Source of the DNA: a virus
Taxonomy: Duplodnaviria; Heunggongvirae; Uroviricota; Caudoviricetes
Virus record (IMG/VR): IMGVR_UViG_2531839666_000019
DNA: 38,533 nt
Direction: 5' to 3' (one strand)
Positions 1-38,533 of this stretch are shown piece by piece. How positions within the stretch are numbered: position 1 is the stretch's first letter; each line of letters starts with the position of its first letter. Both the position numbers and the translations under genes were made by a program. The notes beneath the pieces were generated by a model. That model ran no database searches. It saw only the letters and a list, made by a program, of their open reading frames with translations, and was not told where the DNA came from.

Positions 1-405
1 TCATTGGTTTACTCCCACGTTAATTGCCGCCATTGCGCTTTGAGCAATATCCATGTCTTGTTCAACGCTACCGCCGCTGATGCCAAGCCCGCCAAGCAAT
101 TTTCCGTCACGCCAGAGGGGGAAGCCGCCACCAAAAGTGACGACTTTGCCTTGCATATGGCTTTCGAGCCCGTAAAGCGGCGCGCCGGGTTGCACGGTAT
201 CAGCAAGTTTGTGGGTTGCCGTTTTCATCGCCACGGCGGTCCAGGCTTTTTTCGGTGCCAGTTCACTGCTGACCAACAGGGCATCAGGCATCCGCCAGGT
301 AACACTTTCTGTTCCGTTGGCATCAACAATGCTGATGACAACGGGATGATGCGCCGCGCGATAAATGTACCAATTTCCGTGAGATAAATTACATCGCTGC
401 GGCAT
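1..405 (-). CDS. GlcG/DUF336-family (heme-binding-like) protein; flanking host gene or terminal cargo
   Basis: 134-aa ORF with motif FGGGFPLWRDGKLLGGLGISGGSVEQDMDIAQSA typical of GlcG/DUF336; stop codon is at bases 1-3 and ATG at 405. Confidence 0.55.
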   Translation of the reverse strand: MPQRCNLSHGNWYIYRAAHHPVVISIVDANGTESVTWRMPDALLVSSELAPKKAWTAVAMKTATHKLADTVQPGAPLYGLESHMQGKVVTFGGGFPLWRDGKLLGGLGISGGSVEQDMDIAQSAMAAINVGVNQ

Positions 406-424
406 TTCAATATCTGAAAAAGAA

Positions 425-997
425 TTACAACTTAGCTTGAGTTTGGAGTTCCTCTACAGGGTGATAACGATAAATCGTCGATATACCGATATCGTAAATA
501 ATTGCCAACTGTTTCCTGCTATAGCCATTTTTGATCAGCCTTGCTATTTGTTCATGTTGCTCTTTTGTCAGTTTCGGACGGCGTCCGCCAATACGCCCCT
601 GTGCACGTGCTGCCTCAAGTCCGGCCAGTGTTCGTTCAACTATTAATTCGCGCTCCATTTCCGCTAAAGCCCCCATGACGTGAAAAAAGAAACGTCCCAT
701 GGGTGTTGACGTATCAATGCTGTCTGTAAGACTACGGAAATTAACCCCTTTTCCCCGCAGTTCCTCAATAAGAGTGATAAGGTGTTTCATGCTTCTGCCC
801 AGCCTATCCAGCTTCCAGACAACGAGCGTATCTCCTTCTGATAACGTTCTGAGCAGCTTTTTCAATCCCGGTCGGGCTGACTTTGTTCCGCTGATTTTAT
901 CCTCAAAAATCAGTTCACATCCTGCGCAGTTCAGTGCGTTTCGTTGTAAATCTGTATTCTGGTCATTTGTTGACACACGAATGTAGCCAATTTGCAT
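425..997 (-). CDS. serine recombinase, DNA invertase of the Gin/Pin/Hin/Cin family
   Basis: Protein begins MQIGYIRVSTNDQNTDLQRNAL (catalytic Ser in the YIRVST motif), has a resolvase core and C-terminal HTH, and is very close in pattern to phage Mu Gin; start trimmed from ORF-track 1192 to the ATG at 997. Confidence 0.9.
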   Translation of the reverse strand: MQIGYIRVSTNDQNTDLQRNALNCAGCELIFEDKISGTKSARPGLKKLLRTLSEGDTLVVWKLDRLGRSMKHLITLIEELRGKGVNFRSLTDSIDTSTPMGRFFFHVMGALAEMERELIVERTLAGLEAARAQGRIGGRRPKLTKEQHEQIARLIKNGYSRKQLAIIYDIGISTIYRYHPVEELQTQAKL

Positions 998-1051
998 GAA
1001 AAATATCCTCTTTGTTTTGTTAAAAATACATAGCTGGTATAGGTGGGAGTT

Positions 1052-1079
1052 AAGACGAAAACGTTGGTTTGGGGGAAGG
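1052..1079 (+). other. gix/hix-like crossover site A (variable left half, TT core at 1064-1065, conserved right half GGTTTGGGGGAAGG)
   Basis: Sequence GACGAAAACG-TT-GGTTTGGGGGAAGG matches the AAACC-NN-GGTTT architecture of Gin/Hin sites; the same right half recurs at sites B, C and, inverted, D. Confidence 0.7.
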
Positions 1080-1530
1080 CTCTGCACTACCTGTTGGTGT
1101 GCCTGTTCCGTGGCCGTCAGCCACACCGCCAGCAGGGTGGCTGAAATGTAACGGCGCAGCATTTTCTTCTGAAATGTACCCCAGGCTGGCAAAGGCTTAT
1201 CCGACCAATAAATTACCGGATTTACGGGGCGAATTTATCCGTGGCTGGGATGACGGACGAGGTATTGATGCAGGACGAGAGATACTTTCATTTCAGGAAG
1301 GCACTATCGTCTCCGGTTTTGATGATAATGATACTGGGGATATCAGTTCACTCAGCTCAACACAATACGGATTTGGTGACACTTTAACCTCTAATCAATG
1401 GGGGGCCATAAATGGCAAAAAGTGGATATTTGATGCATCCAGTAAAGGTGCCCAAAAATATGACTGGTGGGCTTATGTATCAGCTCGTCCGCGTAATATT
1501 GCATTTAATTACATCGTAAGAGCGGCATAG
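1066..1530 (+). CDS. silent alternative tail-fibre C-terminal cassette A (no ATG start; expressed only after inversion)
   Basis: Begins GEGSALPVGVPVPWPSATPPAGWLKCNGAAF, the same sequence that follows site D in the expressed tail fibre; ends with conserved RPRNIAFNYIVRAA; ORF-track start is TTG inside the gix site. Confidence 0.75.
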   Translation, partial: GLGEGSALPVGVPVPWPSATPPAGWLKCNGAAFSSEMYPRLAKAYPTNKLPDLRGEFIRGWDDGRGIDAGREILSFQEGTIVSGFDDNDTGDISSLSSTQYGFGDTLTSNQWGAINGKKWIFDASSKGAQKYDWWAYVSARPRNIAFNYIVRAA

Positions 1531-1551
1531 AAACGTTGGTTTGGGGGAAGG
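1524..1551 (+). other. gix/hix-like crossover site B
   Basis: ATAGAAACG-TT-GGTTTGGGGGAAGG, core at 1536-1537, immediately after the stop codon of cassette A. Confidence 0.7.
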
Positions 1552-1969
1552 CTCTGCACTGCCCGTTGGTGTGCCTGTTCCGTGGCCCTCAGCCACACCG
1601 CCAACAGGCTGGCTGAAATGTAACGGTGCAGTATTTTCTGCTGGGAAGTACCCCAAACTGGCACAGGCTTACCCCACCAATAAATTACCGGATTTACGGG
1701 GCGAATTTATTCGTGGCTGGGATGATGGACGTGGAGTGGACAATGGGCGAGCATTATTAAGCAGGCAGGAGGCTACAAATTTTTCTTATTACGGAGGTAA
1801 TTTCGATATTGGGTCTGGTCATTCAATCAATAACTATGACCAAATCGTTGACAACCAACCTGGATTCTCCCGTTTTTCATTTGCAGGTCCTTCGCGAGGC
1901 GATGGGGTTAATTTTGTGACCATTCGTCCTCGTAATATTGCGTTTAATTACATCGTAAGGGCAGCATGA
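1538..1969 (+). CDS. silent alternative tail-fibre C-terminal cassette B
   Basis: Same conserved N-terminal block and C-terminal RPRNIAFNYIVRAA with a different central region; starts in gix site B. Confidence 0.75.
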   Translation, partial: GLGEGSALPVGVPVPWPSATPPTGWLKCNGAVFSAGKYPKLAQAYPTNKLPDLRGEFIRGWDDGRGVDNGRALLSRQEATNFSYYGGNFDIGSGHSINNYDQIVDNQPGFSRFSFAGPSRGDGVNFVTIRPRNIAFNYIVRAA

Positions 1970-1990
1970 AAACGTTGGTTTGGGGGAAGG
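1963..1990 (+). other. gix/hix-like crossover site C
   Basis: CATGAAAACG-TT-GGTTTGGGGGAAGG, core at 1975-1976, immediately after the stop codon of cassette B. Confidence 0.7.
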
Positions 1991-2483
1991 CTCTGCACTA
2001 CCTGTTGGTGTGCCTGTTCCGTGGCCGTCAGCCACACCGCCAGCAGGGTGGCTGAAATGTAACGGCGCAGCATTTTCTTCTGAAATGTACCCCTGGCTGG
2101 CAAAGGCTTATCCGACCAATAAATTACCGGATTTACGGGGCGAATTTATCCGTGGCTGGGATGACGGACGGGGAATTGATTCAGGGCGTTTCTTGCTTAA
2201 TGCACAACCACATTCGGTTATGGATCATACTCACTATATGGAGTTATGGACCGGTGAAGGGCTTGCTGCAAACAGCACCCGTGCAGGAACAAACCCTGGT
2301 ATACTGGCTACATACGGTGATGGCGGGATTGTTAAAACAGATGAGTCAGGTGTAAAAGTTCCATCTTCACTACGTGCTATTGGCACTCGTGGTGTTTATA
2401 GATTAGGTGCCAACGGAGGGAATACAGGAACGGAAAACCGCCCCCGTAATATTGCGTTTAACTATATTGTAAGGGCTACTTAA
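1977..2483 (+). CDS. silent alternative tail-fibre C-terminal cassette C
   Basis: Same conserved block (about 125 bp identical to the expressed copy) and C-terminal motif; stop overlaps the tfa start (TAATG at 2481-2485). Confidence 0.75.
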   Translation, partial: GLGEGSALPVGVPVPWPSATPPAGWLKCNGAAFSSEMYPWLAKAYPTNKLPDLRGEFIRGWDDGRGIDSGRFLLNAQPHSVMDHTHYMELWTGEGLAANSTRAGTNPGILATYGDGGIVKTDESGVKVPSSLRAIGTRGVYRLGANGGNTGTENRPRNIAFNYIVRAT

Positions 2484-3100
2484 TGAATAATGCTGCTGCA
2501 GTACTTGATCAGAATGGTATCGCTATAACTGCAGGCGATATTACCGTTTATAACTACGATGCTGAAAACCGTGAATATCTCTCTGCCACTGTTGAATATC
2601 TCGCTTATGGTGTTGGAATTCCGGCTCACTCATGCATTGACGCGCCACCAGAAAAACGCCCCGGCTTCGCTGTCTGTCGTGATACCGACCAGAACATCTG
2701 GAAATATGTTCCAGACCACAGAGGCGAAACGGTTTACAGCACAGAGAATGGTAACGCTGTGCAAATCACACAGCCGGGAGATTACCCTTCAGATACGACG
2801 GTGAAACAGCCAGCTACCATCTATGATGTCTGGGATGGTGAGACCTGGGTGACAGATACGAGACGACAGCACGCAGCAGAACTGGAAGCTGCCGGAGCGC
2901 ATCGTCAGCAACTTGAGGAACAGGCAATGGCATCTGTTGAGCTTATTAATCTCAAACTACGAGCCGGACGCCGATTGACGCCCCAGGAGACGGAAAAACT
3001 AAACGCCGTGCTTGATTTCATAGATGCGCTTAATGCGACTGACATCAGCACTGCACCGGATATCAACTGGCCGGAAATGCCTCTGGCAGCAGCCAGTTGA
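2483..3100 (+). CDS. tail fibre assembly protein (Tfa/U-like chaperone)
   Basis: 205-aa protein with the typical Tfa N-terminal region; lies directly downstream of cassette C and converges on the expressed tail fibre. Confidence 0.75.
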   Translation: MNNAAAVLDQNGIAITAGDITVYNYDAENREYLSATVEYLAYGVGIPAHSCIDAPPEKRPGFAVCRDTDQNIWKYVPDHRGETVYSTENGNAVQITQPGDYPSDTTVKQPATIYDVWDGETWVTDTRRQHAAELEAAGAHRQQLEEQAMASVELINLKLRAGRRLTPQETEKLNAVLDFIDALNATDISTAPDINWPEMPLAAAS

Positions 3101-3106
3101 GTATAA

Positions 3107-4075
3107 TTAAGCCGCCCTCACGATATAGTTAAATGCAATATTGCGGGGGCGAGTTTCACTACCACCAGTGTTACCAATACTTCCTCGTGAATGAAGCGTT
3201 GGTGATGGAATCAAACTCCCTCCTGTATTTGCAGCATCAAGTCCCCGGCCTTGTGAATATGTTTTTTTGAAAATTGTGGCCAACTCCCATTCATCCTTTG
3301 TGTCATACCCATCGTTAGCTACAACAATATGGCGGTGTTTTTCCAGCATCCCAGTTTGAAAGCTCAATAAAGCACGTCCTGCATCAATCCCTCGCCCGTC
3401 ATCCCAGCCACGGATAAATTCGCCCCGTAAATCCGGTAATTTATTGGTCGGATAAGCCTTTGCCAGCCAGGGGTACATTTCAGAAGAAAATGCTGCGCCG
3501 TTACATTTCAGCCACCCTGCTGGTGGTGTTGCTGAGGGCCACGGAACGGGCACACCAACGGGCAGCGCAGAGCCTTCCCCCAAACCAAGGTTTTTGACAA
3601 ACAGCGCAGGATCAGGAATATCTGCGCCGTTCTGGTCTTTAGCCAGCTTTTCCGCCAGCTTGTTCAGTACCGTAGTCGCAAAGTTTGGATCATTACCGAG
3701 AGCGTCAGCCAGCTCTTTAAGCGTATCCAGTGTCTCAGGGGCGCTGCCTGCAAGCGCCGCAAGTGCTTTGGCCACAAACTCCGTCGTCGCCAGCTTTTTG
3801 CTGTTATCGCCATTTGCAGGTGTAGGTGCTGTTGGTGTGCCGGTGAATGCCGGACTGGCTTTCGGTGCATACTGGGCATGCGGGTCTGCTGCCGCGATGT
3901 GTTTCGCAAGGTCAGCCCCGCCTTTTTCAACCTGTTGCTTCAGGTACAGCGTGCGGCTGGCCAGTTGTTTACCCTGACGGTTAGAAATTCCGTCAGGCCC
4001 GCCCAGAACGGGGTCAGAGACCTCAATCTGGTAGATGCCGTCTTCCCACTGTGGGGTTTCAGGTAGATTTGCCAT
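3107..4075 (-). CDS. tail fibre protein (constant N-terminal part plus currently expressed variable C-terminal cassette D, 3107-3586)
   Basis: 322-aa protein; N-terminal tail-fibre region followed after site D by the GEGSALPVGV block and the RPRNIAFNYIVRAA terminus. Confidence 0.85.
   Translation of the reverse strand: MANLPETPQWEDGIYQIEVSDPVLGGPDGISNRQGKQLASRTLYLKQQVEKGGADLAKHIAAADPHAQYAPKASPAFTGTPTAPTPANGDNSKKLATTEFVAKALAALAGSAPETLDTLKELADALGNDPNFATTVLNKLAEKLAKDQNGADIPDPALFVKNLGLGEGSALPVGVPVPWPSATPPAGWLKCNGAAFSSEMYPWLAKAYPTNKLPDLRGEFIRGWDDGRGIDAGRALLSFQTGMLEKHRHIVVANDGYDTKDEWELATIFKKTYSQGRGLDAANTGGSLIPSPTLHSRGSIGNTGGSETRPRNIAFNYIVRAA
3573..3600 (-). other. gix/hix-like crossover site D, inverted relative to A-C, inside the expressed tail-fibre gene
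   Basis: Plus strand reads CCTTCCCCCAAACC-AA-GGTTTTTGACAA, a near-palindrome resembling hixL; core at 3587-3588; encodes FVKNLGLGEG of the tail fibre. Confidence 0.75.
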
Positions 4076-6161: not shown

Positions 6162-7037
6162 TTAAATTACGAAAACCTTGACGATAAGTTCTCCGTCTTT
6201 AGAAACTCTCTTCCCCTCAAGATCAGATTTCAGCCCCTCAGAATTAGTAATAAGCTGGTTCGGATCGTAGATGACACACCAGAGATTTTTGCAATCAGAG
6301 TGCCGACGATAATGCTCTATATCGATAATAAGTTCATCGCCGATTTTCTTTGCATGAGAACGATCACGAACAATTTTGGTTTCCAGTACTAATTTATGCG
6401 CAGGTAACAAAAAATCCATTCGAGTACTTGAACCAGCGTAACTTGGAGTAAACTCTTCTGGGCGGATGTCCTGAACCCATGGTCTGAGCAATGCATGGAG
6501 AAGGTCTTGCACGTCATATTCATTGCTAAAAGATAATGACTGGCTTCCTTTTCGCCTATGAGTAAGTGGATGCATTGCTCGCTGTAAGCCTTTGACCAGC
6601 CTTTCCAGTAAGTTCTCAACTTTTTCTGGCATTACTGGCTGTTGATAAGTAATTATGGTCTCTGGGTAATCCATATTGTGTGACGGGATGTGGCCTTCAG
6701 GCAACACTCGACCAAAACGATAATATCTAAGTCCATTCTCTTGTAACACAGCTTCAATTCTGTCTCGTTTTTCCTTCCATTCTGCATATTCGGGAGTACC
6801 TTCTTTTGGAGGTAAATCCATAAACTCCTCAATTACTCCGCCCAGAACTGCCAGACTATCTGTATCTGGATCTTGCCCTGCAAGAAATAACCAGTCTTTC
6901 CATTTTGTACTATGAGATCCTGCCGGAGGGTTTCCTGGTGCTCCCGAAGTAAGAAATAACGTATCTAAAGCTGCATGAGAGCCTGAGTTAGCAATGACAT
7001 CGCCAACTACTTTACATAAGGATCTTGATAACCGCAT
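6162..7037 (-). CDS. inserted accessory gene in the baseplate block; candidate PD-(D/E)xK-fold nuclease-like protein
   Basis: 291-aa ORF, visibly AT-richer than flanking genes, flanked by 71-bp and 81-bp spacers; C-terminal region contains D-x11-E-x-K (MDFLLPAHKLVLETKIV). Confidence 0.5.
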   Translation of the reverse strand: MRLSRSLCKVVGDVIANSGSHAALDTLFLTSGAPGNPPAGSHSTKWKDWLFLAGQDPDTDSLAVLGGVIEEFMDLPPKEGTPEYAEWKEKRDRIEAVLQENGLRYYRFGRVLPEGHIPSHNMDYPETIITYQQPVMPEKVENLLERLVKGLQRAMHPLTHRRKGSQSLSFSNEYDVQDLLHALLRPWVQDIRPEEFTPSYAGSSTRMDFLLPAHKLVLETKIVRDRSHAKKIGDELIIDIEHYRRHSDCKNLWCVIYDPNQLITNSEGLKSDLEGKRVSKDGELIVKVFVI

Positions 7038-28269: not shown

Positions 28270-28284
28270 GGTAATGACTCCAAC

Positions 28285-28788
28285 TTATTGATAGTGTTTT
28301 ATGTTCAGATAATGCCCGATGACTTTGTCATGCAGCTCCACCGATTTTGAGAACGACAGCGACTTCCGTCCCAGCCGTGCCAGGTGCTGCCTCAGATTCA
28401 GGTTATGCCGCTCAATTCGCTGCGTATATCGCTTGCTGATTACGTGCAGCTTTCCCTTCAGGCGGGATTCATACAGCGGCCAGCCATCCGTCATCCATAT
28501 CACCACGTCAAAGGGTGACAGCAGGCTCATAAGACGCCCCAGCGTCGCCATAGTGCGTTCACCGAATACGTGCGCAACAACCGTCTTCCGGAGCCTGTCA
28601 TACGCGTAAAACAGCCAGCGCTGGCGCGATTTAGCCCCGACATAGCCCCACTGTTCGTCCATTTCAGCGCAGACAATCACATCACTGCCCGGCTGTATGC
28701 GCGAAGTTACCGACTGCGGCCTGAGTTTTTTAAGTGACGTAAAGTCGTGTTGAGGCCAACGCCCATAATGCGGGCTGTTGCCCGGCAT
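28285..28788 (-). CDS. insB: IS1 InsB (transposase reading frame, normally expressed as InsAB by frameshift)
   Basis: 167-aa ORF matching IS1 InsB. Confidence 0.9.
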
Positions 28789-28982
28789 CCAACGCCATTC
28801 ATGGCCATATCAATGATTTTCTGGTACGTACCGGGTTGAGAAGCGGTGTAAGTGAACTGCAGTTGCCATGTTTTACGGCAGTGAGAGCAGAGATAGCGCT
28901 GATGTCCGGCGGTGCTTTTGCCGTTACGCACCACCCCGTCAGTAGCTGAACAGGAGGGACAGCTGATAGAAACAGAAGCCAC
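28707..28982 (-). CDS. insA: IS1 InsA
   Basis: 91-aa protein [40 protein letters not shown]. Confidence 0.95.
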
Positions 28983-29010
28983 TGGAGCACCTCAAAAACA
29001 CCATCATACA

Positions 29011-29985
29011 CTAAATCAGTAAGTTGGCAGCATCACCTTGTTGGTCAAGTAATAGAGCTCTACATGGGGCGGTCAAAACACGGGCATAACGACCATCGGG
29101 GTTTATGTTGATGTAACAAGTTTTCCCTTTAACACCATAAGATTCAGGTATTATTGCCTGTGTAGACACCGTGAATTTAAGGGTATGCCAGCCCGATTTT
29201 TGCTTGTAGCTTGAAACCGAATGGAAATCATCTGAGTACTTATTTAACCCTGGAAACATGCTGCGTAATGCTGGGATGGAATCTTCTATTATTTTGTCGT
29301 TGGTTTTAATGTTAAAAACGCTGGTTTCAGTAGATGCTACTGCTTTAGCATTTCCCCATTTACCAGCGAACACAATCATTCCCACGAAAAATATTGCGAC
29401 AAGAACTAACGCTCCCCCCAACACTACTACATGAGGCTTCCGGCTTCTGGTTGGTACAGTCGCGACTGATTTTGCCCCGCTGTCCGATGGAGGTGATAGA
29501 GTTTTACTCTCATCACGAATATTCAGCAGATCATCAAAATAACCAAACACAGCCTGCAACTGCTCTTTGTCCAGGCCTTTAAGATGGGTTGTACCGAAAT
29601 GCTTCAGACAGTATCTGTCACGGTCAAGACGATACCTAGGGTCAGTAAGCACCATTATTTTGCTGACCAGAAGATTACAGTCCTTCATATTCTGGATCTG
29701 TTGTGCATATCTCTGGAGGATCTCAACCGCACCATGATAATCAGCCGCAGTCATTTCATTAACTGTTTTGGTATTAAGTTTCGTGTGGATCGTCATCCAT
29801 AGTTCGCGCTTACTTTCCCCCAGATCAACCAATTCATCCATCAATCTGTGTAAATCGCGTTTTTGCAGCAACGAAATTGGTTGCTGGGCAGAGGGAAGTA
29901 TGTCAGCAGAATAGTTATGAATGGTAACATCACCGCTGACAACGTTACCCACATCTCCGTTAACTGTTTGCTTCTCTTTACTCAT
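29011..29985 (-). CDS. single-pass membrane protein co-transcribed with the repressor; 3' end replaced by IS1 sequence
   Basis: 324-aa ORF; N-terminal GDVGNVVSGDVTIHNY motif, TM helix VVVLGGALVLVAIFFVGMIVFAG; last 8 codons and stop lie inside IS1; without IS1 the frame would continue leftward to a stop near 28194. Confidence 0.6.
   Translation of the reverse strand: MSKEKQTVNGDVGNVVSGDVTIHNYSADILPSAQQPISLLQKRDLHRLMDELVDLGESKRELWMTIHTKLNTKTVNEMTAADYHGAVEILQRYAQQIQNMKDCNLLVSKIMVLTDPRYRLDRDRYCLKHFGTTHLKGLDKEQLQAVFGYFDDLLNIRDESKTLSPPSDSGAKSVATVPTRSRKPHVVVLGGALVLVAIFFVGMIVFAGKWGNAKAVASTETSVFNIKTNDKIIEDSIPALRSMFPGLNKYSDDFHSVSSYKQKSGWHTLKFTVSTQAIIPESYGVKGKTCYININPDGRYARVLTAPCRALLLDQQGDAANLLI
29038..29074. 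repeat. 37-bp direct repeat, right copy flanking IS1
   Basis: Identical to 28233-28269. Confidence 0.9.
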
Positions 29986-31968: not shown

Positions 31969-33738
31969 ATGAATGCTGCCCTGACTGAACGACTGGTTTA
32001 TGTCGCCCGCGCGGCACGTGACGCGGGGCATGGTAAACGCGGTGCAATATACGACGCTGCCTGTGCTGAACTTGGCATGTCCCGCGCCACTCTGCTGCGC
32101 AGGCTGAAGGAGGTATCTGTGACTGATAAACGCAAAAAACGCGCCGATGCCGGGCGCAGCGCCCTGACCCGCGACGAAGCCGCGCTGATATCTGCCACAC
32201 TGCGTGAGGCCACCCGCAAGAACGGTAAGCGTCTCTATTCCATCGCAGATGCAGTGGAAACCCTGCGGGCTAACGGCTTTATCTCCGCAGGCAGAACAGA
32301 TGAAACCACCGGTGAGTTTTTCCCGTTGTCCGAAGATGCCATCAGTCGTGCCTTGCGTAACTATGGCCTGCACCCGGAACAACTGGATGCCCCTGCGCCG
32401 CATACCGAAGTGGCCAGTCTGCATCCCAATCACGTCTGGCAGATTGATGCCTCGCTCTGCACGCTTTACTACCTGAGCAATGGACACAAAGGGCTGCAGG
32501 TGATGGACAGCGCGAAGTTCTACAAGAATAAACCCGCTAACCTTGCCCGTATCGCCAGTGACCGCGTGTGGAGTTACGAGATTACCGACCATGCCAGCGG
32601 CTGGATTTACGTTGAGTATGTGACGGGTGCGGAATCCGGTGAGAACCTGTGTTCTGTGCTTATCAACGCCATGCAGGAGCGTGGCGGCGCAGACGTGCTG
32701 CACGGCGTGCCGAAAATACTCTATCTCGACCCCGGCTCGGCAAACACCGCGGGTATGACGAAAAACATGTGCCGCTCACTGGGCATCGACCTGATAGCGC
32801 ACAAGCCGCATAACGCCCGCGCCACCGGACAGGTGGAAAAGGCGCGTGACATTATCGAACGCAAGCTGGAGCCGGGTCTGAAATTCCGGCCGGTTCACAG
32901 TCTGGAAGAACTCAACGCGCTGGCCGCGAAATGGCGTAGCCACTTTAACGCAACAGCTGTTCACAGCCGCCACGGTAAAACCCGCACGGATATCTGGCTG
33001 AAGATTACTGCTGAGCAGCTGAAAAAAGCGCCTTCCGTTGAGGTATGCCGTGAACTGGCTGTGGCGACACCAGAACTCCGCAAAGTCACGCCAAAACTTC
33101 GTGTCTCGTTCCGGGGCACTGAATTTGACGTATCAACGGTACCGGGCGTACTGGTTGGTGAAAAACTGATGATTACCCGTAACCCATGGCGCAGCGATGT
33201 GGCACAGGTGGTTCTGACCGGTGAGGACGGCCACGAGACGTTCTTCCTGGTCGAAGAGGTCAGAAAGAACGAGTTTGGCTTTGCTGAAGGCGCGGCGGTA
33301 TTTGGCGAAAGTTACAAAGCCCTGCCGGAAACACCGGCACAGACGGCGGCAAAAGAAACCGAAGCGCTGGTCACCGGTACAGACAACGCCGCAGATGCAG
33401 CTGCCGCACGCAAGGCGAAGGCGCTGCCGTTCGGCGGGCGGCTTGACCCGTATAAACATATTGATGACGCCACACTTCCGGCCTGTATACCGAAGCGCGG
33501 TCAGGTCTCTGATGTACGCAGACCGCGCACTGAACAACGTCCCATGACTCATGTGGAGGCCGCGAAAGCCCTGCGCGATAAGTTCAGCGCCGACGGCCTT
33601 ACCTGGACGCCGGAACATTACCGCCAGTTAACGGCACAGTACCCGGACGGCGTACCGGAAGCCGCACTGGATGAAGTAATGGCCACGCTGACCACGCCGG
33701 CCCGCAGCAGCGTTATCAGCATTGTTAACGGCAACTGA
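31969..33738 (+). CDS. DDE transposase (Mu A-like, integrase-core family)
   Basis: 589-aa protein with DDE-type residues in HVWQIDAS and YLDPGSAN; followed by an overlapping AAA+ partner gene. Confidence 0.8.
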   Translation: MNAALTERLVYVARAARDAGHGKRGAIYDAACAELGMSRATLLRRLKEVSVTDKRKKRADAGRSALTRDEAALISATLREATRKNGKRLYSIADAVETLRANGFISAGRTDETTGEFFPLSEDAISRALRNYGLHPEQLDAPAPHTEVASLHPNHVWQIDASLCTLYYLSNGHKGLQVMDSAKFYKNKPANLARIASDRVWSYEITDHASGWIYVEYVTGAESGENLCSVLINAMQERGGADVLHGVPKILYLDPGSANTAGMTKNMCRSLGIDLIAHKPHNARATGQVEKARDIIERKLEPGLKFRPVHSLEELNALAAKWRSHFNATAVHSRHGKTRTDIWLKITAEQLKKAPSVEVCRELAVATPELRKVTPKLRVSFRGTEFDVSTVPGVLVGEKLMITRNPWRSDVAQVVLTGEDGHETFFLVEEVRKNEFGFAEGAAVFGESYKALPETPAQTAAKETEALVTGTDNAADAAAARKAKALPFGGRLDPYKHIDDATLPACIPKRGQVSDVRRPRTEQRPMTHVEAAKALRDKFSADGLTWTPEHYRQLTAQYPDGVPEAALDEVMATLTTPARSSVISIVNGN

Positions 33739-34915
33739 GGAGGGAAACATGCTGGTACTGAAGCAGCAACTGAAAGAGGCCCGTATTCCACAGGCGGTGG
33801 TGGCGAGAGCTGTCGATGTTTCTGAGGCCACGCTGGCCCAGATTGTGAATCATAACGCGTGGCCCCGCACCAGCCCCGGAGAAGTGCGCCGGCGTCTTGC
33901 GTCCTGGCTGGAAAGTCAGGGGATTGATACAGCGAAGAGTTTTGATGCTGTACAGGGCGCGGCCACTCCCCGTACAGCGGGTACCACAGATAAAACGAGC
34001 CTCAGTGAGGAAGAGAATATGTTACTCAAAAAACAGGTGTTATTCCCGGCAACCAAAAAAGCGTTTGGTCTTTTCCGTGACCCGTTCGCCGACGAAGCCA
34101 TGCAGGGTTCTGATGATGTGTTCACCACCCCGGACATTCGCTACGTGCGTGAGGCGTTGTACCAGACAGCCCGTCATGGTGGGTTTATGGCCGTCATCGG
34201 TGAGTCCGGTGCGGGTAAATCCACGCTGCGCCGCGACCTGACTGAACGTATCAACCGCGAGAATGCGCCGGTAATTGTTATCGAGCCATACATCATCGCT
34301 ATGGAAGACAACGATGTGAAAGGGAAAACCCTGAAGGCAGCAGCTATTGCCGAAGCCATTATCAGTACCATCGCACCACTGGAAAGCATCAGACGCAGTC
34401 AGGACGCCCGCTTTCGCCAGTTGCATCGCGTCCTGAAAGACAGCAGCCAGGCGGGGTTCAGCCACGTTCTGGTGATTGAGGAGGCCCACAGTCTGCCCAT
34501 TCCGACACTGAAACACCTCAAACGCTTTTTTGAGCTGGAGTCCGGTTTCAAAAAACTGCTGTCCATCGTGCTGATTGGCCAGCCGGAACTGGCGACAAAA
34601 CTGTCTGAACGCAATATGGAAGTCCGTGAAGTCGTTCAGCGCTGTGAGGTGGTCGAACTTCTGCCTCTGGACAATAACCTTGAAGAGTTTCTGACGTTCA
34701 AACTGCAACGGGCAGGTAAACAACTGACGGACATTATGGACGCCAGTGCAGTGGATGCCATACGTGCCCGCCTGAGCAATCCGGGAAGTCATCGTAAAAA
34801 TATGGTCAGCCTGTTGTATCCGCTGGCCGTCAGTAACCTGGTGATAGCCGCCATGAATCTGGCCGCTGAAATCGGGGTTCCACAGGTCAACGCTGACGTT
34901 GTCAAAGGGGTTTAA
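33722..34915 (+). CDS. transposition ATPase (Mu B/TniB-like AAA+)
   Basis: Walker A VIGESGAGKST and Walker B HVLVIEEAH; N-terminal HTH. Confidence 0.8.
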   Translation: MLTATEEGNMLVLKQQLKEARIPQAVVARAVDVSEATLAQIVNHNAWPRTSPGEVRRRLASWLESQGIDTAKSFDAVQGAATPRTAGTTDKTSLSEEENMLLKKQVLFPATKKAFGLFRDPFADEAMQGSDDVFTTPDIRYVREALYQTARHGGFMAVIGESGAGKSTLRRDLTERINRENAPVIVIEPYIIAMEDNDVKGKTLKAAAIAEAIISTIAPLESIRRSQDARFRQLHRVLKDSSQAGFSHVLVIEEAHSLPIPTLKHLKRFFELESGFKKLLSIVLIGQPELATKLSERNMEVREVVQRCEVVELLPLDNNLEEFLTFKLQRAGKQLTDIMDASAVDAIRARLSNPGSHRKNMVSLLYPLAVSNLVIAAMNLAAEIGVPQVNADVVKGV

Positions 34916-35214: not shown

Positions 35215-35745
35215 ATGGCAAAAAGTACAAAAGGGGCAAAACGTATCAAGTCCGCAGCGGCACTCTGGGTACCGGGGACACGCGAAGAGGTCATTGAGGG
35301 AATCAGACTGCTCGGTGACGCACAACGTGAACTGGTCAGGGCTGAAACAGAAATGAATGACGCCATTGGCGATATCACCGCACGTTATGCCCCGCTCACC
35401 GAGAGCCTAAAAAAACGCATGGCCGAACTGCAGTCCGGTATTCAGACATGGTGTGAGGCACACCGTGATGAACTGACCGGCAACGGGAAGGTGAAGTTCG
35501 CTAACCTCACCACCGGCGAGGTGCAGTGGCGAAACCGTCCGCCATCAGTCAGTATCCGTGGAGCGGATAATGTTATTGAACTACTGAGACGTCTGGGGCT
35601 TGAGCGCTTTATTCGTGTAAAAGAGGAAATAAATAAAGATGCCATTCTGAATGAAAAAGAGGCCGTGAAAAATATTCCCGGTATTACCATAAAAAGTGAT
35701 ATTGAGGATTTTTCAATAATTCCTTTTGAGCAGGATGTGCAGTAA
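35215..35745 (+). CDS. gam: Gam-like host-nuclease inhibitor protein (Mu Gam family)
   Basis: 176-aa protein with N-terminal coiled coil and overall pattern of the Mu Gam family. Confidence 0.65.
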   Translation: MAKSTKGAKRIKSAAALWVPGTREEVIEGIRLLGDAQRELVRAETEMNDAIGDITARYAPLTESLKKRMAELQSGIQTWCEAHRDELTGNGKVKFANLTTGEVQWRNRPPSVSIRGADNVIELLRRLGLERFIRVKEEINKDAILNEKEAVKNIPGITIKSDIEDFSIIPFEQDVQ

Positions 35746-37525: not shown

Positions 37526-37719
37526 ATCTGTTGTATGTGCCATGTTCTGGTATTGTTTTGTCGGTTAGTGTACTGCTGAACTGCACCGCCGTTCAGGGTT
37601 TTATTCACGTTACAGTGGTGCCGGCTACTGGATTAGCTGGTCGGTGATGTTCCTGTGCTGGCCTGTGGCGCTTCCTTTATATGTCGATTATATCGGTGGC
37701 GCAGGTAAAAGGAGCAACG

Positions 37720-38172
37720 ATGATGACTAAACAACGTCTTATCCAGCTCATTCATATTGCCCGTAATGAACTGGGTATGGATGAAGACACCTACCGCCAG
37801 ATGTTACAGGGGCTGACCGGTAAAGCCTCAACCAAAGGAATGGATACCACACAACTAAACTGCGTGCTGGAATCCATGAAAAGGAAAGGCTTTCGCGTTA
37901 AGCCTGCCGGAAAAGCCAGCTCCGGTTTACCGCTGGATAACCATCCGCAGTCCAGGAAAATCCGTGCGCTATGGATTGAAATGGCTGCTGCCGGCATTGT
38001 TCGTGACCGTTCAGAAAATGCATTAGCGCGGTGGATCAAGCGGGAAACGGGCATCAGCGCCCTGCGCTGGCTCAATACTGAACAGGCAAGCAGTGTTATT
38101 GAGAAACTGAAGAAGTGGCAGCGCAGAGCTGCGGGAGTAAAACATGAGCGACCTGAATCAGTTTCGAAGTAA
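37720..38172 (+). CDS. gemA: GemA-like regulatory protein (DUF1018 family)
   Basis: MMTKQRLIQLIHIARNELGMDEDTYRQML pattern; start set at the ATG at 37720, preceded by AAAGGAG. Confidence 0.6.
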   Translation: MMTKQRLIQLIHIARNELGMDEDTYRQMLQGLTGKASTKGMDTTQLNCVLESMKRKGFRVKPAGKASSGLPLDNHPQSRKIRALWIEMAAAGIVRDRSENALARWIKRETGISALRWLNTEQASSVIEKLKKWQRRAAGVKHERPESVSK

Positions 38173-38533
38173 AGGGCCGGAACTCCTGGTGGAACTGGCA
38201 CAGCATACCTCTGAGACCGTTCGCGAGATTATTGATATTGAGCCCGCAATTGCCGACCAGATTGGTCAGGCTGTCGCGAACCGAATGATGCAGGTCTGGG
38301 GCGGGCAAAACGTTTATTTCCCAATGGGCATGGTATGGAAGGTCAGTCAGCGCGACCGGGAAATCTTCAGGGAGTTTAACGGACGCAACCACCACGAACT
38401 GGCCCGCAAATTTGGTGTTTCGCTTCAGTGGGTCTACAGCGTGGTTAAGCGGGTAAGAAAAGAAGAACTGGATCGGATGCAGGGCAAGCTATTTGCTGAT
38501 GAACCCGATGCAGATACGGAGAAAAAAGAGTAA
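38144..38533 (+). CDS. mor: Mor/C-family transcription activator
   Basis: 129-aa protein with C-terminal HTH ELARKFGVSLQWVYSVVKR; stop at the last three bases of the window. Confidence 0.7.
   Translation: MSDLNQFRSKGPELLVELAQHTSETVREIIDIEPAIADQIGQAVANRMMQVWGGQNVYFPMGMVWKVSQRDREIFREFNGRNHHELARKFGVSLQWVYSVVKRVRKEELDRMQGKLFADEPDADTEKKE

Follow-up and report, generated by a model that had tools for sequence, protein, structure and literature searches.

We analyzed a 38,533-nucleotide stretch of viral DNA, IMG/VR virus record IMGVR_UViG_2531839666_000019 (hereafter, the window), and find that it very probably carries, at the tail-fibre end of a BcepMu-like transposable Escherichia coli prophage, an active multiple DNA-inversion switch of the Min type. 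The module consists of a serine DNA invertase, four crossover sites in both orientations, and four alternative C-terminal cassettes, one of which at a time would be joined to the constant part of the tail-fibre gene. An earlier, sequence-only reading of this DNA had described a four-site invertible module with programmed switching among four fibre types; its observation is confirmed and its interpretation as a switch is supported. That reading had missed three features: a tail-fibre assembly gene, tfa, lies within the invertible region (2483-3100, plus strand); the outer half-sites of three crossover sites are degenerate; and further inversions among the shuffled sites bring the number of DNA arrangements to 12.

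Layout of the module and a model for its inversion

The invertase gene, of the Gin/Pin/Min family, occupies 425..997 on the minus strand (190 aa; Pfam Resolvase 4e-51, HTH_7 1e-13). Beside it on the plus strand stand three silent cassettes that have neither a promoter nor an ATG: cassette A (1066..1530; 154 codons; Pfam Collar 4e-15), cassette B (1538..1969; 143 codons; Pfam Collar), and cassette C (1977..2483; 168 codons; Pfam Collar). The tfa gene follows on the same strand (205 aa; Pfam Caudo_TAP 2e-26); its start overlaps the stop of cassette C in the sequence TAATG at 2481-2485, so that it is translationally coupled to C. Tail-to-tail with tfa and 6 nt away, cassette D (3107..3586, minus strand; 159 codons; Collar) is presently fused to the constant 5′ part of the tail-fibre gene (3589..4075, minus strand; 162 codons) and expressed with it, which gives a gene of 322 aa (3107-4075, minus strand) placed after the P2-type baseplate genes W, J, and I.

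Each cassette is headed by a 26-bp crossover site. Site A, the one proximal to the invertase (1052..1077, plus strand), reads AAGACGAAAACG-TT-GGTTTGGGGGAA; site B (1524..1549, plus strand) reads GGCATAGAAACG-TT-GGTTTGGGGGAA, its left half being the last codons and stop of cassette A; and site C (1963..1988, plus strand) reads AGCATGAAAACG-TT-GGTTTGGGGGAA, its left half being the end of cassette B. Site D (3575..3600, minus strand) reads TTGTCAAAAACC-TT-GGTTTGGGGGAA on the minus strand and is the best match to known sites: it is identical at 22 of 26 positions to the site of the cryptic E. coli K-12 prophage e14, CTCTCGAAAACCTTGGTTTGGGAGAA, and at about 20 of 26, by eye, to Mu gix, TTATCCAAAACCTCGGTTTACAGGAA. 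All four have the form used by the Gin/Hin/Cin/Pin/Min (Din) serine-invertase systems, namely two imperfect inverted 12-bp halves around an identical 2-bp core. The core and inner half are common to sites A, B, and C, and their outer halves, AAGACGAAAACG, GGCATAGAAACG, and AGCATGAAAACG, are degenerate (xxCATrrAAACG for B and C). The invertase, the three start-less cassettes, and the fourth site inside the minus-strand fibre gene are all where the sequence-only reading had put them, and so are the central dinucleotides, at 1064/1065, 1536/1537, 1975/1976, and 3587/3588.

The shared sequence TT-GGTTTGGGGGAAGG, which heads every cassette, has four matches in the window, with none expected by chance. 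The 22-mer TTGGTTTGGGGGAAGGCTCTGC occurs in exactly four copies, three direct (starting at 1064, 1536, and 1975, plus strand) and one inverted (3567-3588, minus strand), and it was absent from 100 shuffles of the sequence even with up to 3 mismatches permitted. Each site stands at the start of a repeat of about 220 nt, in direct or inverted orientation to the others; these repeats, 85-95% identical, correspond to the conserved, Collar-encoding 5′ part of each cassette. The central dinucleotide is TT in all four window sites and in 74 of 74 related sites that we compiled. When species-representative genomes were scanned for the exact pattern of the silent-cassette site, the only matches were in an Escherichia sp. 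and in one probable contaminant contig. The latter (L035) is a 1,268-bp contig assigned to Moraxella osloensis (CAXORL010000041.1), which is most likely enterobacterial contamination and no genuine Moraxella locus.

The junctions that such sites predict are in frame. With the central TT as the joint, the constant part (3589-4075, minus strand) forms open frames of 317, 306, 331, and 322 aa with A, B, C, and D, respectively, with one stop each. The proposal that a constant N-terminus could be fused to four alternative C-termini is borne out, as each of the four fusions exists as an exact natural E. coli protein.

The enzyme itself is intact in sequence. It aligns with Mu Gin (PDB 4M6F) over 183 residues (E=6e-90) and has the architecture of small serine recombinases, with an N-terminal catalytic domain containing Ser9/10 and a C-terminal helix-turn-helix. 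The Ser9 nucleophile is kept (YIRVSTNDQ), a position that is Ala in the S9A Gin crystal form 3UJ3, and the DRLGR motif is present; residue 114 is Met, against Val in both Gin crystal-structure sequences. With the invertase of a P2-like prophage in enteropathogenic E. coli (EPEC) E2348/69 it shares 95% identity, compared with 82% for e14 PinE and 74% for Gin. A catalytically dead invertase had been named in advance as grounds for abandoning the idea of a switch; with Ser9, DRLGR, and the Gin alignment intact, the protein gives no such sign.

A putative recombinational enhancer lies within the invertase gene at 912..976 (minus strand). Within invertase nt 22-86, two Fis-type G-N13-C 15-mers mark it, one at nt 22-36 and the other at nt 71-85, with a spacing of 49 bp; gin and pinE share both with the window invertase, and the distance from site A to the centre of the nearer 15-mer is about 96 bp. 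Third-codon positions of the invertase are best conserved in the first 20 codons. The Fis consensus is too degenerate for mapping sites, so that positional homology alone was used, and the likeness to the Hin enhancer, which spans 65 bp, is bounded by two Fis sites, and lies about 100 bp from hixL (PMC3798978), is likewise positional, in size and spacing. Inversion here would presumably depend on Fis and the enhancer and be preferred over deletion.

In the mechanism that we propose, the invertase would cut the central TT of the four sites and invert the DNA between any two that are oppositely oriented. Site D lies where the constant N-terminal shaft gives way to the C-terminal tip, and the other three head the promoterless tip cassettes. 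Cassettes A and B are single-ended, with a site at the head and last codons that double as the outer half of the next site, and C and D, facing head-outwards around the single tfa, form one double-headed segment (C-tfa-D), with both flanks ending in outer half-sites. Under such rules, a single-ended cassette between the constant part and the double-headed segment would point away from the constant part, one between the double-headed segment and the invertase would point towards the constant part, and the double-headed segment would be free to take either orientation. Every arrangement would then join exactly one of A, B, C, and D in frame to the constant part. Virions, or whatever fibre protein the operon gives rise to, would carry one of four receptor-binding tips, and a lysogen population would be a mixture of specificities.

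A breadth-first enumeration from the window state, using only inversions between opposite sites, arrives at 12 isomers; with n=2 single-ended cassettes, the formula (n+1)! x 2 gives this number too. Six of the 12 are observed, and no observed arrangement breaks the orientation rule. The rule also holds in all related modules that we examined, which have 2 (L008), 3 (L010, L029), 5 (L018, L021, L022, L024), 6 (L020), or 7 (L023) cassettes. With 6-7 cassettes, the largest of the related modules (L020 from E. coli 12089, L023 from E. coli A33, and L031 from the P1-like plasmid p10044802_3) would allow as many as 6! x 2 = 1,440 isomers; several cassettes in these three modules are frameshifted or truncated.

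Arrangements of the module in other genomes

Copies of this prophage in E. coli from mice allow the arrangements to be compared against a nearly constant background: 100% identity to the window extends over the invertase, the constant part, gpI, and tfa as well as the cores of B, C, and D. Seven complete mouse-derived genomes have no mismatches in flanks of 2,412 nt and 2,900 nt, yet they hold four arrangements of the 2,523-bp region between them. Read outward from the constant part (const), with arrowheads for orientation, these are const-A> B> C> tfa> <D in E. coli FEA3; const-A> C> tfa> <D <B in DEF10 and 3-72; const-B> C> tfa> <D <A in DEF2; and const-A> B> D> <tfa <C in three isolates of 8178. 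Cassette A is therefore the expressed one in FEA3, DEF10, 3-72, and 8178, and B is in DEF2. The window and the drafts L009 and L011, at the same insertion site, have const-D> <tfa <C <B <A, and L012, also at that site, has const-D> <tfa <C <A <B, as does the chromosome-level assembly of CFIAFB20190167, again at the same site. In total there are six arrangements, four from the mouse genomes and two more from the window and its same-site relatives (L009, L011, L012, L019).

The breakpoints of these rearrangements can be placed narrowly. Cassette-specific single-nucleotide polymorphisms (SNPs), which begin 8 nt past the 26-bp site, always go with the cassette body, and the four outer half-sites stay put; the exchange is thus confined to at most 22 bp that include the TT, which is the signature of site-specific and not of homologous recombination. 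The left half AAGACGAAAACG, for instance, always stays beside the invertase, and the cassette attached to it is A, B, C, or D, depending on the genome. Of the 14 possible pairings of outer half-site and cassette, 13 are seen in DNA and the 14th, the constant part with C, as an exact protein. Inversion itself, as expected of a serine-invertase system, is in this way established by genome comparison, not by experiment.

The four fusions differ in how often they are found, with the caveat that state counts are not phylogenetically independent. As exact fusion proteins in public E. coli assemblies, const-A is present on 127 contigs (plus 20 of a mouse-strain variant), const-B on 224, const-C on 30, and const-D on 29. 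Junction queries against 5,426 complete E. coli genomes, in which some two-piece places were ambiguous, found the const-A junction in 12 genomes and const-B in 1-2; the const-C junction was in none of these 5,426, and with its 30 draft contigs we regard it as the rarest state. Whole-isomer BLAST counts were left unused, since same-strand pieces are joined regardless of order and isomers that differ in cassette order are inseparable.

Fibre tips, the single tfa gene and the role of the switch

In each cassette, the Collar domain is followed by a core of 50-90 residues that varies and by a last strand, PRNIAFNYIVRAA, that is conserved. The fibre matches the receptor-binding tip of T4 gp37 (2XGF) with E=1.5e-17, in the collar and last strand; short tail fibres also match. 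The HxH motif typical of such tips is present in the cores of C and D; A and B are without it and are shorter. Among public proteins, at least 8 different cores occur behind this constant N-terminus, and a D-type tip is also found on a 509-aa P2-type fibre. Based on this tip homology and on the precedents of Mu, P1, and carotovoricin, we infer that the four tips differ in receptor or host range. The ratio of nonsynonymous to synonymous substitution rates (dN/dS) is 0.11 for A, 0.16-0.19 for B when compared with a copy on a P1-like plasmid, and 0.03-0.04 for D when compared with a P2-like copy. The silent cassettes are under purifying selection, which fits periodic expression. The annotation pipeline PGAP calls the silent cassettes as separate 'phage tail protein' genes, starting from a TTG inside the crossover site.

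Several points weigh against our interpretation. Switching in the window strain is deduced from differences between genomes, and some isomers come from short-read drafts, in which misjoining at the 220-bp repeats is possible. At sites A, B, and C, the outer halves fit the invertase consensus poorly, and the enhancer is assigned by positional homology only. An IS1 copy in the prophage makes virion production uncertain. Finally, some states may yield no functional fibre: in the D state, which is that of the window, the sole tfa is antisense to the late transcript, and a 95%-identical D tip in a P2-like prophage (L025, 4001-6132) has its own co-oriented tfa directly downstream.

The tfa of that P2-like prophage is 59% identical to the one in the window. 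All modules have a single tfa, oriented like the C-type cassette, and in our enumeration tfa is sense to the late operon in only 6 of the 12 isomers. A sigma-70 consensus scan, which is blind to phage late promoters, found no promoter-like site for tfa on the plus strand. It may be that D, A, and B fold without Tfa, that Tfa comes from elsewhere, or that the six isomers of the D> <tfa type are chaperone-less. A more elaborate possibility, which we consider unlikely but worth stating, is that the orientation of C-tfa-D is a second layer of control, setting not only which tip is chosen but also whether the chaperone is made. In one version of this idea, D, and A or B in some arrangements, may be chaperone-independent tips of another folding class than C. 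In another, half of the isomers may be deliberate fibre-less or 'off' states, which could suit host-protective receptor masking of the kind described below for StfE2.

The wider context of the module bears on what the switch is for. Positions 346-38533 of the window make up the nearly complete prophage, with early genes on the plus strand and late genes on the minus strand. The early genes include a transposase (rve; 31969-33738; 68.5% identical to BcepMu gp09 and 97.6% to that of the isolated Escherichia phage PhiKM), a B-like ATPase (33722-34915), Gam (35215-35745), GemA (37681-38172), and Mor (38144-38533), all on the plus strand; the minus strand carries Mu-type portal, sheath, tape-measure, and baseplate genes. 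The phage end at about 346 reads ...TGATGCGCC on the plus strand, i.e., ...CA-3′ in phage orientation. The insertion interrupts a host gene of the GlcG/HbpS family next to pduP, and E. coli CFIAFB20190167 shares this insertion site; the open reading frame (ORF) at 1-405 (minus strand), a 134-aa 'HbpS-like' product, is that host gene truncated by the insertion and extended into phage DNA. Other copies are inserted at yehR, hycI, fepE, yicL, and rnd, as expected for transposition. The IS1 copy lies between the late and early regions, at about 28270-29037 (InsB 28285-28788; one terminal repeat at 29037), and may affect the viability of the prophage.

In a 291-aa ORF between baseplate genes V and W (6162-7037, minus strand), Pfam identifies a restriction-endonuclease domain of the DpnII-MboI type (4e-47), and the PADLOC model 'Aga_Helical-REase' also matches (1.8e-30). 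Some related prophages (L008, L020, L021) lack this ORF, which looks like a moron and could be a defence nuclease.

One could accept that the switch is real and still hold that its main present role is on the host side, with the fibre chimeras masking surface receptors against other phages or arming a tailocin-like particle. The precedent is e14, where inversion of the P segment by PinQ gives rise to StfE2, a protein that blocks the adsorption of T2 (PMC12529663). The e14 stfE cassette opens with the site and the conserved head that the window cassettes have, and the prophage in the window bears both an IS1 copy and a nuclease moron. However, IS1 aside, the window encodes an apparently complete BcepMu-like phage, its transposase is nearly that of an isolated phage, and its copies at many chromosomal sites indicate recent transposition. 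The fibre gene, moreover, belongs to the late tail operon and has no promoter-like site of its own. We regard a mainly host-side role as improbable.

Other routes to the isomers and relation to known inversion systems

The arrangements could, in principle, have been produced by RecA-dependent homologous recombination between the cassette-head repeats, with the invertase incidental or inactive. At about 220 bp, these repeats are long enough for RecA, and homologous exchange does happen here: in the window, a 49-nt gene-conversion tract runs from cassette C into cassette A (1088-1136, nt 25-73 after the crossover), with 8 substitutions relative to the mouse-strain cassette A, all matching window cassette C, which indicates that cassette heads also exchange homologously. 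Nevertheless, all isomers place the exchange after the outer half-site and before the first SNP specific to a cassette, within the 22 bp described above, and chimeric heads were found in none of 13 junction types. The intact invertase, its 95% identity to the enzyme of an experimentally switching module, and the invariant TT core argue in the same direction, and we find it very hard to credit RecA with the isomers. Least likely of all is that the isomers are assembly artefacts around the repeated heads of a non-inverting fossil: drafts do often break or misjoin at the repeats (in Escherichia sp. MOD1-EC7003 the site falls on three contigs, two of them short, at 1,013 and 1,695 bp), but the four mouse arrangements come from closed, circular chromosome assemblies with identical flanks, all arrangements follow the orientation rule required by site-specific inversion, and a related three-site module has been confirmed by polymerase chain reaction (PCR) (PMC4272514).

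Site-specific inversion by the invertase thus remains our preferred account, and the related three-site module is its closest counterpart. This prophage locus of EPEC E2348/69 has three inverted repeats and two overlapping inversions of about 2.2 and 1.8 kb; whole-genome sequencing and PCR showed four variants, with three alternative C-termini, coexisting in single colonies (Goldberg et al. 2014, Genome Med 6:112, PMC4272514). Beyond its invertase, the EPEC module (NC_011601 1891695-1893703) shares with the window the identical 14-bp core TT-GGTTTGGGGGAA, outer halves of one family (AGCATGAAAACG, AAAACGAAAACG), and a double-headed [cassette> <tfa <cassette] unit. It differs in having one cassette fewer, with a single single-ended cassette and 4 isomers rather than 12; in its P2-type fibre N-terminus, where the window has a BcepMu-like constant part; and in the position of the invertase, which lies between tail genes in EPEC and at the phage end in the window. 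The formula (n+1)! x 2 gives 4 for the EPEC module, the number found experimentally. The window is the next-larger version of this experimentally validated module.

In class, the module is of the Min type: one invertase acts on more than two sites (four here) in both orientations, and the variable fibre gene consists of one constant 5′ part with alternative 3′ parts. The likeness to Min that the sequence-only reading had proposed holds on both of these counts. The Min system of p15B, which Sandmeier et al. 1990 (PNAS 87:1109) are reported to have described, uses one Gin-family serine invertase and more than two sites in both orientations, with overlapping invertible segments that build a variable fibre gene from a constant 5′ part and alternative 3′ parts, and reportedly has six sites and 240 isomers. 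By comparison, the window has four sites to the six of Min, and its element is a transposable Mu-like prophage, in contrast to the P1-like plasmid that hosts Min. Sequence homology to Min-like regions was established for P1-like elements: the sites of the window, and its conserved cassette heads, recur in the phage vB_EcoM-673R5 (L017) and the plasmid p10044802_3 (L031). In 673R5 the invertase region has about 86% nucleotide identity to the window; a single tfa and a B-type cassette were seen only in p10044802_3.

The same reading had also likened the module to shufflons. The combinatorial logic is indeed shared, as oppositely oriented sites in the R64-type shufflon (Rci, pilV) give a constant 5′ part alternative 3′ ends; the likeness fails at the enzyme, Rci being a tyrosine recombinase that acts on asymmetric sfx sites, with a conjugative pilus adhesin as the target. 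The module's only recombinase is of the serine type, and we reject membership in the R64-type shufflon class.

Two-state systems are related but simpler. The Pin/P segment of e14 has, in addition to its PinE, the site CTCTCGAAAACC-TT-GGTTTGGGAGAA, which is the one compared with site D above; it differs from the window in having two sites, two states, and a separate tfa for each alternative (tfaP, tfaE). The Gin/G segment of Mu and the Cin/C segment of P1 have the same enzyme family, 26-bp sites with a 2-bp core, and a constant S N-terminus fused to alternative C-termini that determine host range. They have two sites only, S-U and S′-U′ with two chaperones, and unrelated variable parts, and the core dinucleotide of Mu gix is TC, against TT in the window. 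With four sites and a single tfa, the window does not belong to the two-state class of the Mu G and P1 C segments.

The principle, and a near-identical three-site system, have already been published, so that the window is a larger member of a known group and opens no new field; the asymmetry of its single chaperone is the only aspect that might repay experiments. The rules that govern these modules are nonetheless of practical use in annotation, in quality control of assemblies, and in engineering the host range of phages or tailocins. Phage tail proteins annotated as 'partial' or 'hypothetical' from a TTG start are silent cassettes, and isomer heterogeneity breaks assemblies at this region. 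Modules of the same type, with 2 to 7 cassettes, are carried by BcepMu-like, P2-like, and P1-like elements. The window offers a natural example of combinatorial host-range bet-hedging, in which a 2.5-kb region and one small recombinase give rise to 12 DNA states and 4 tips.

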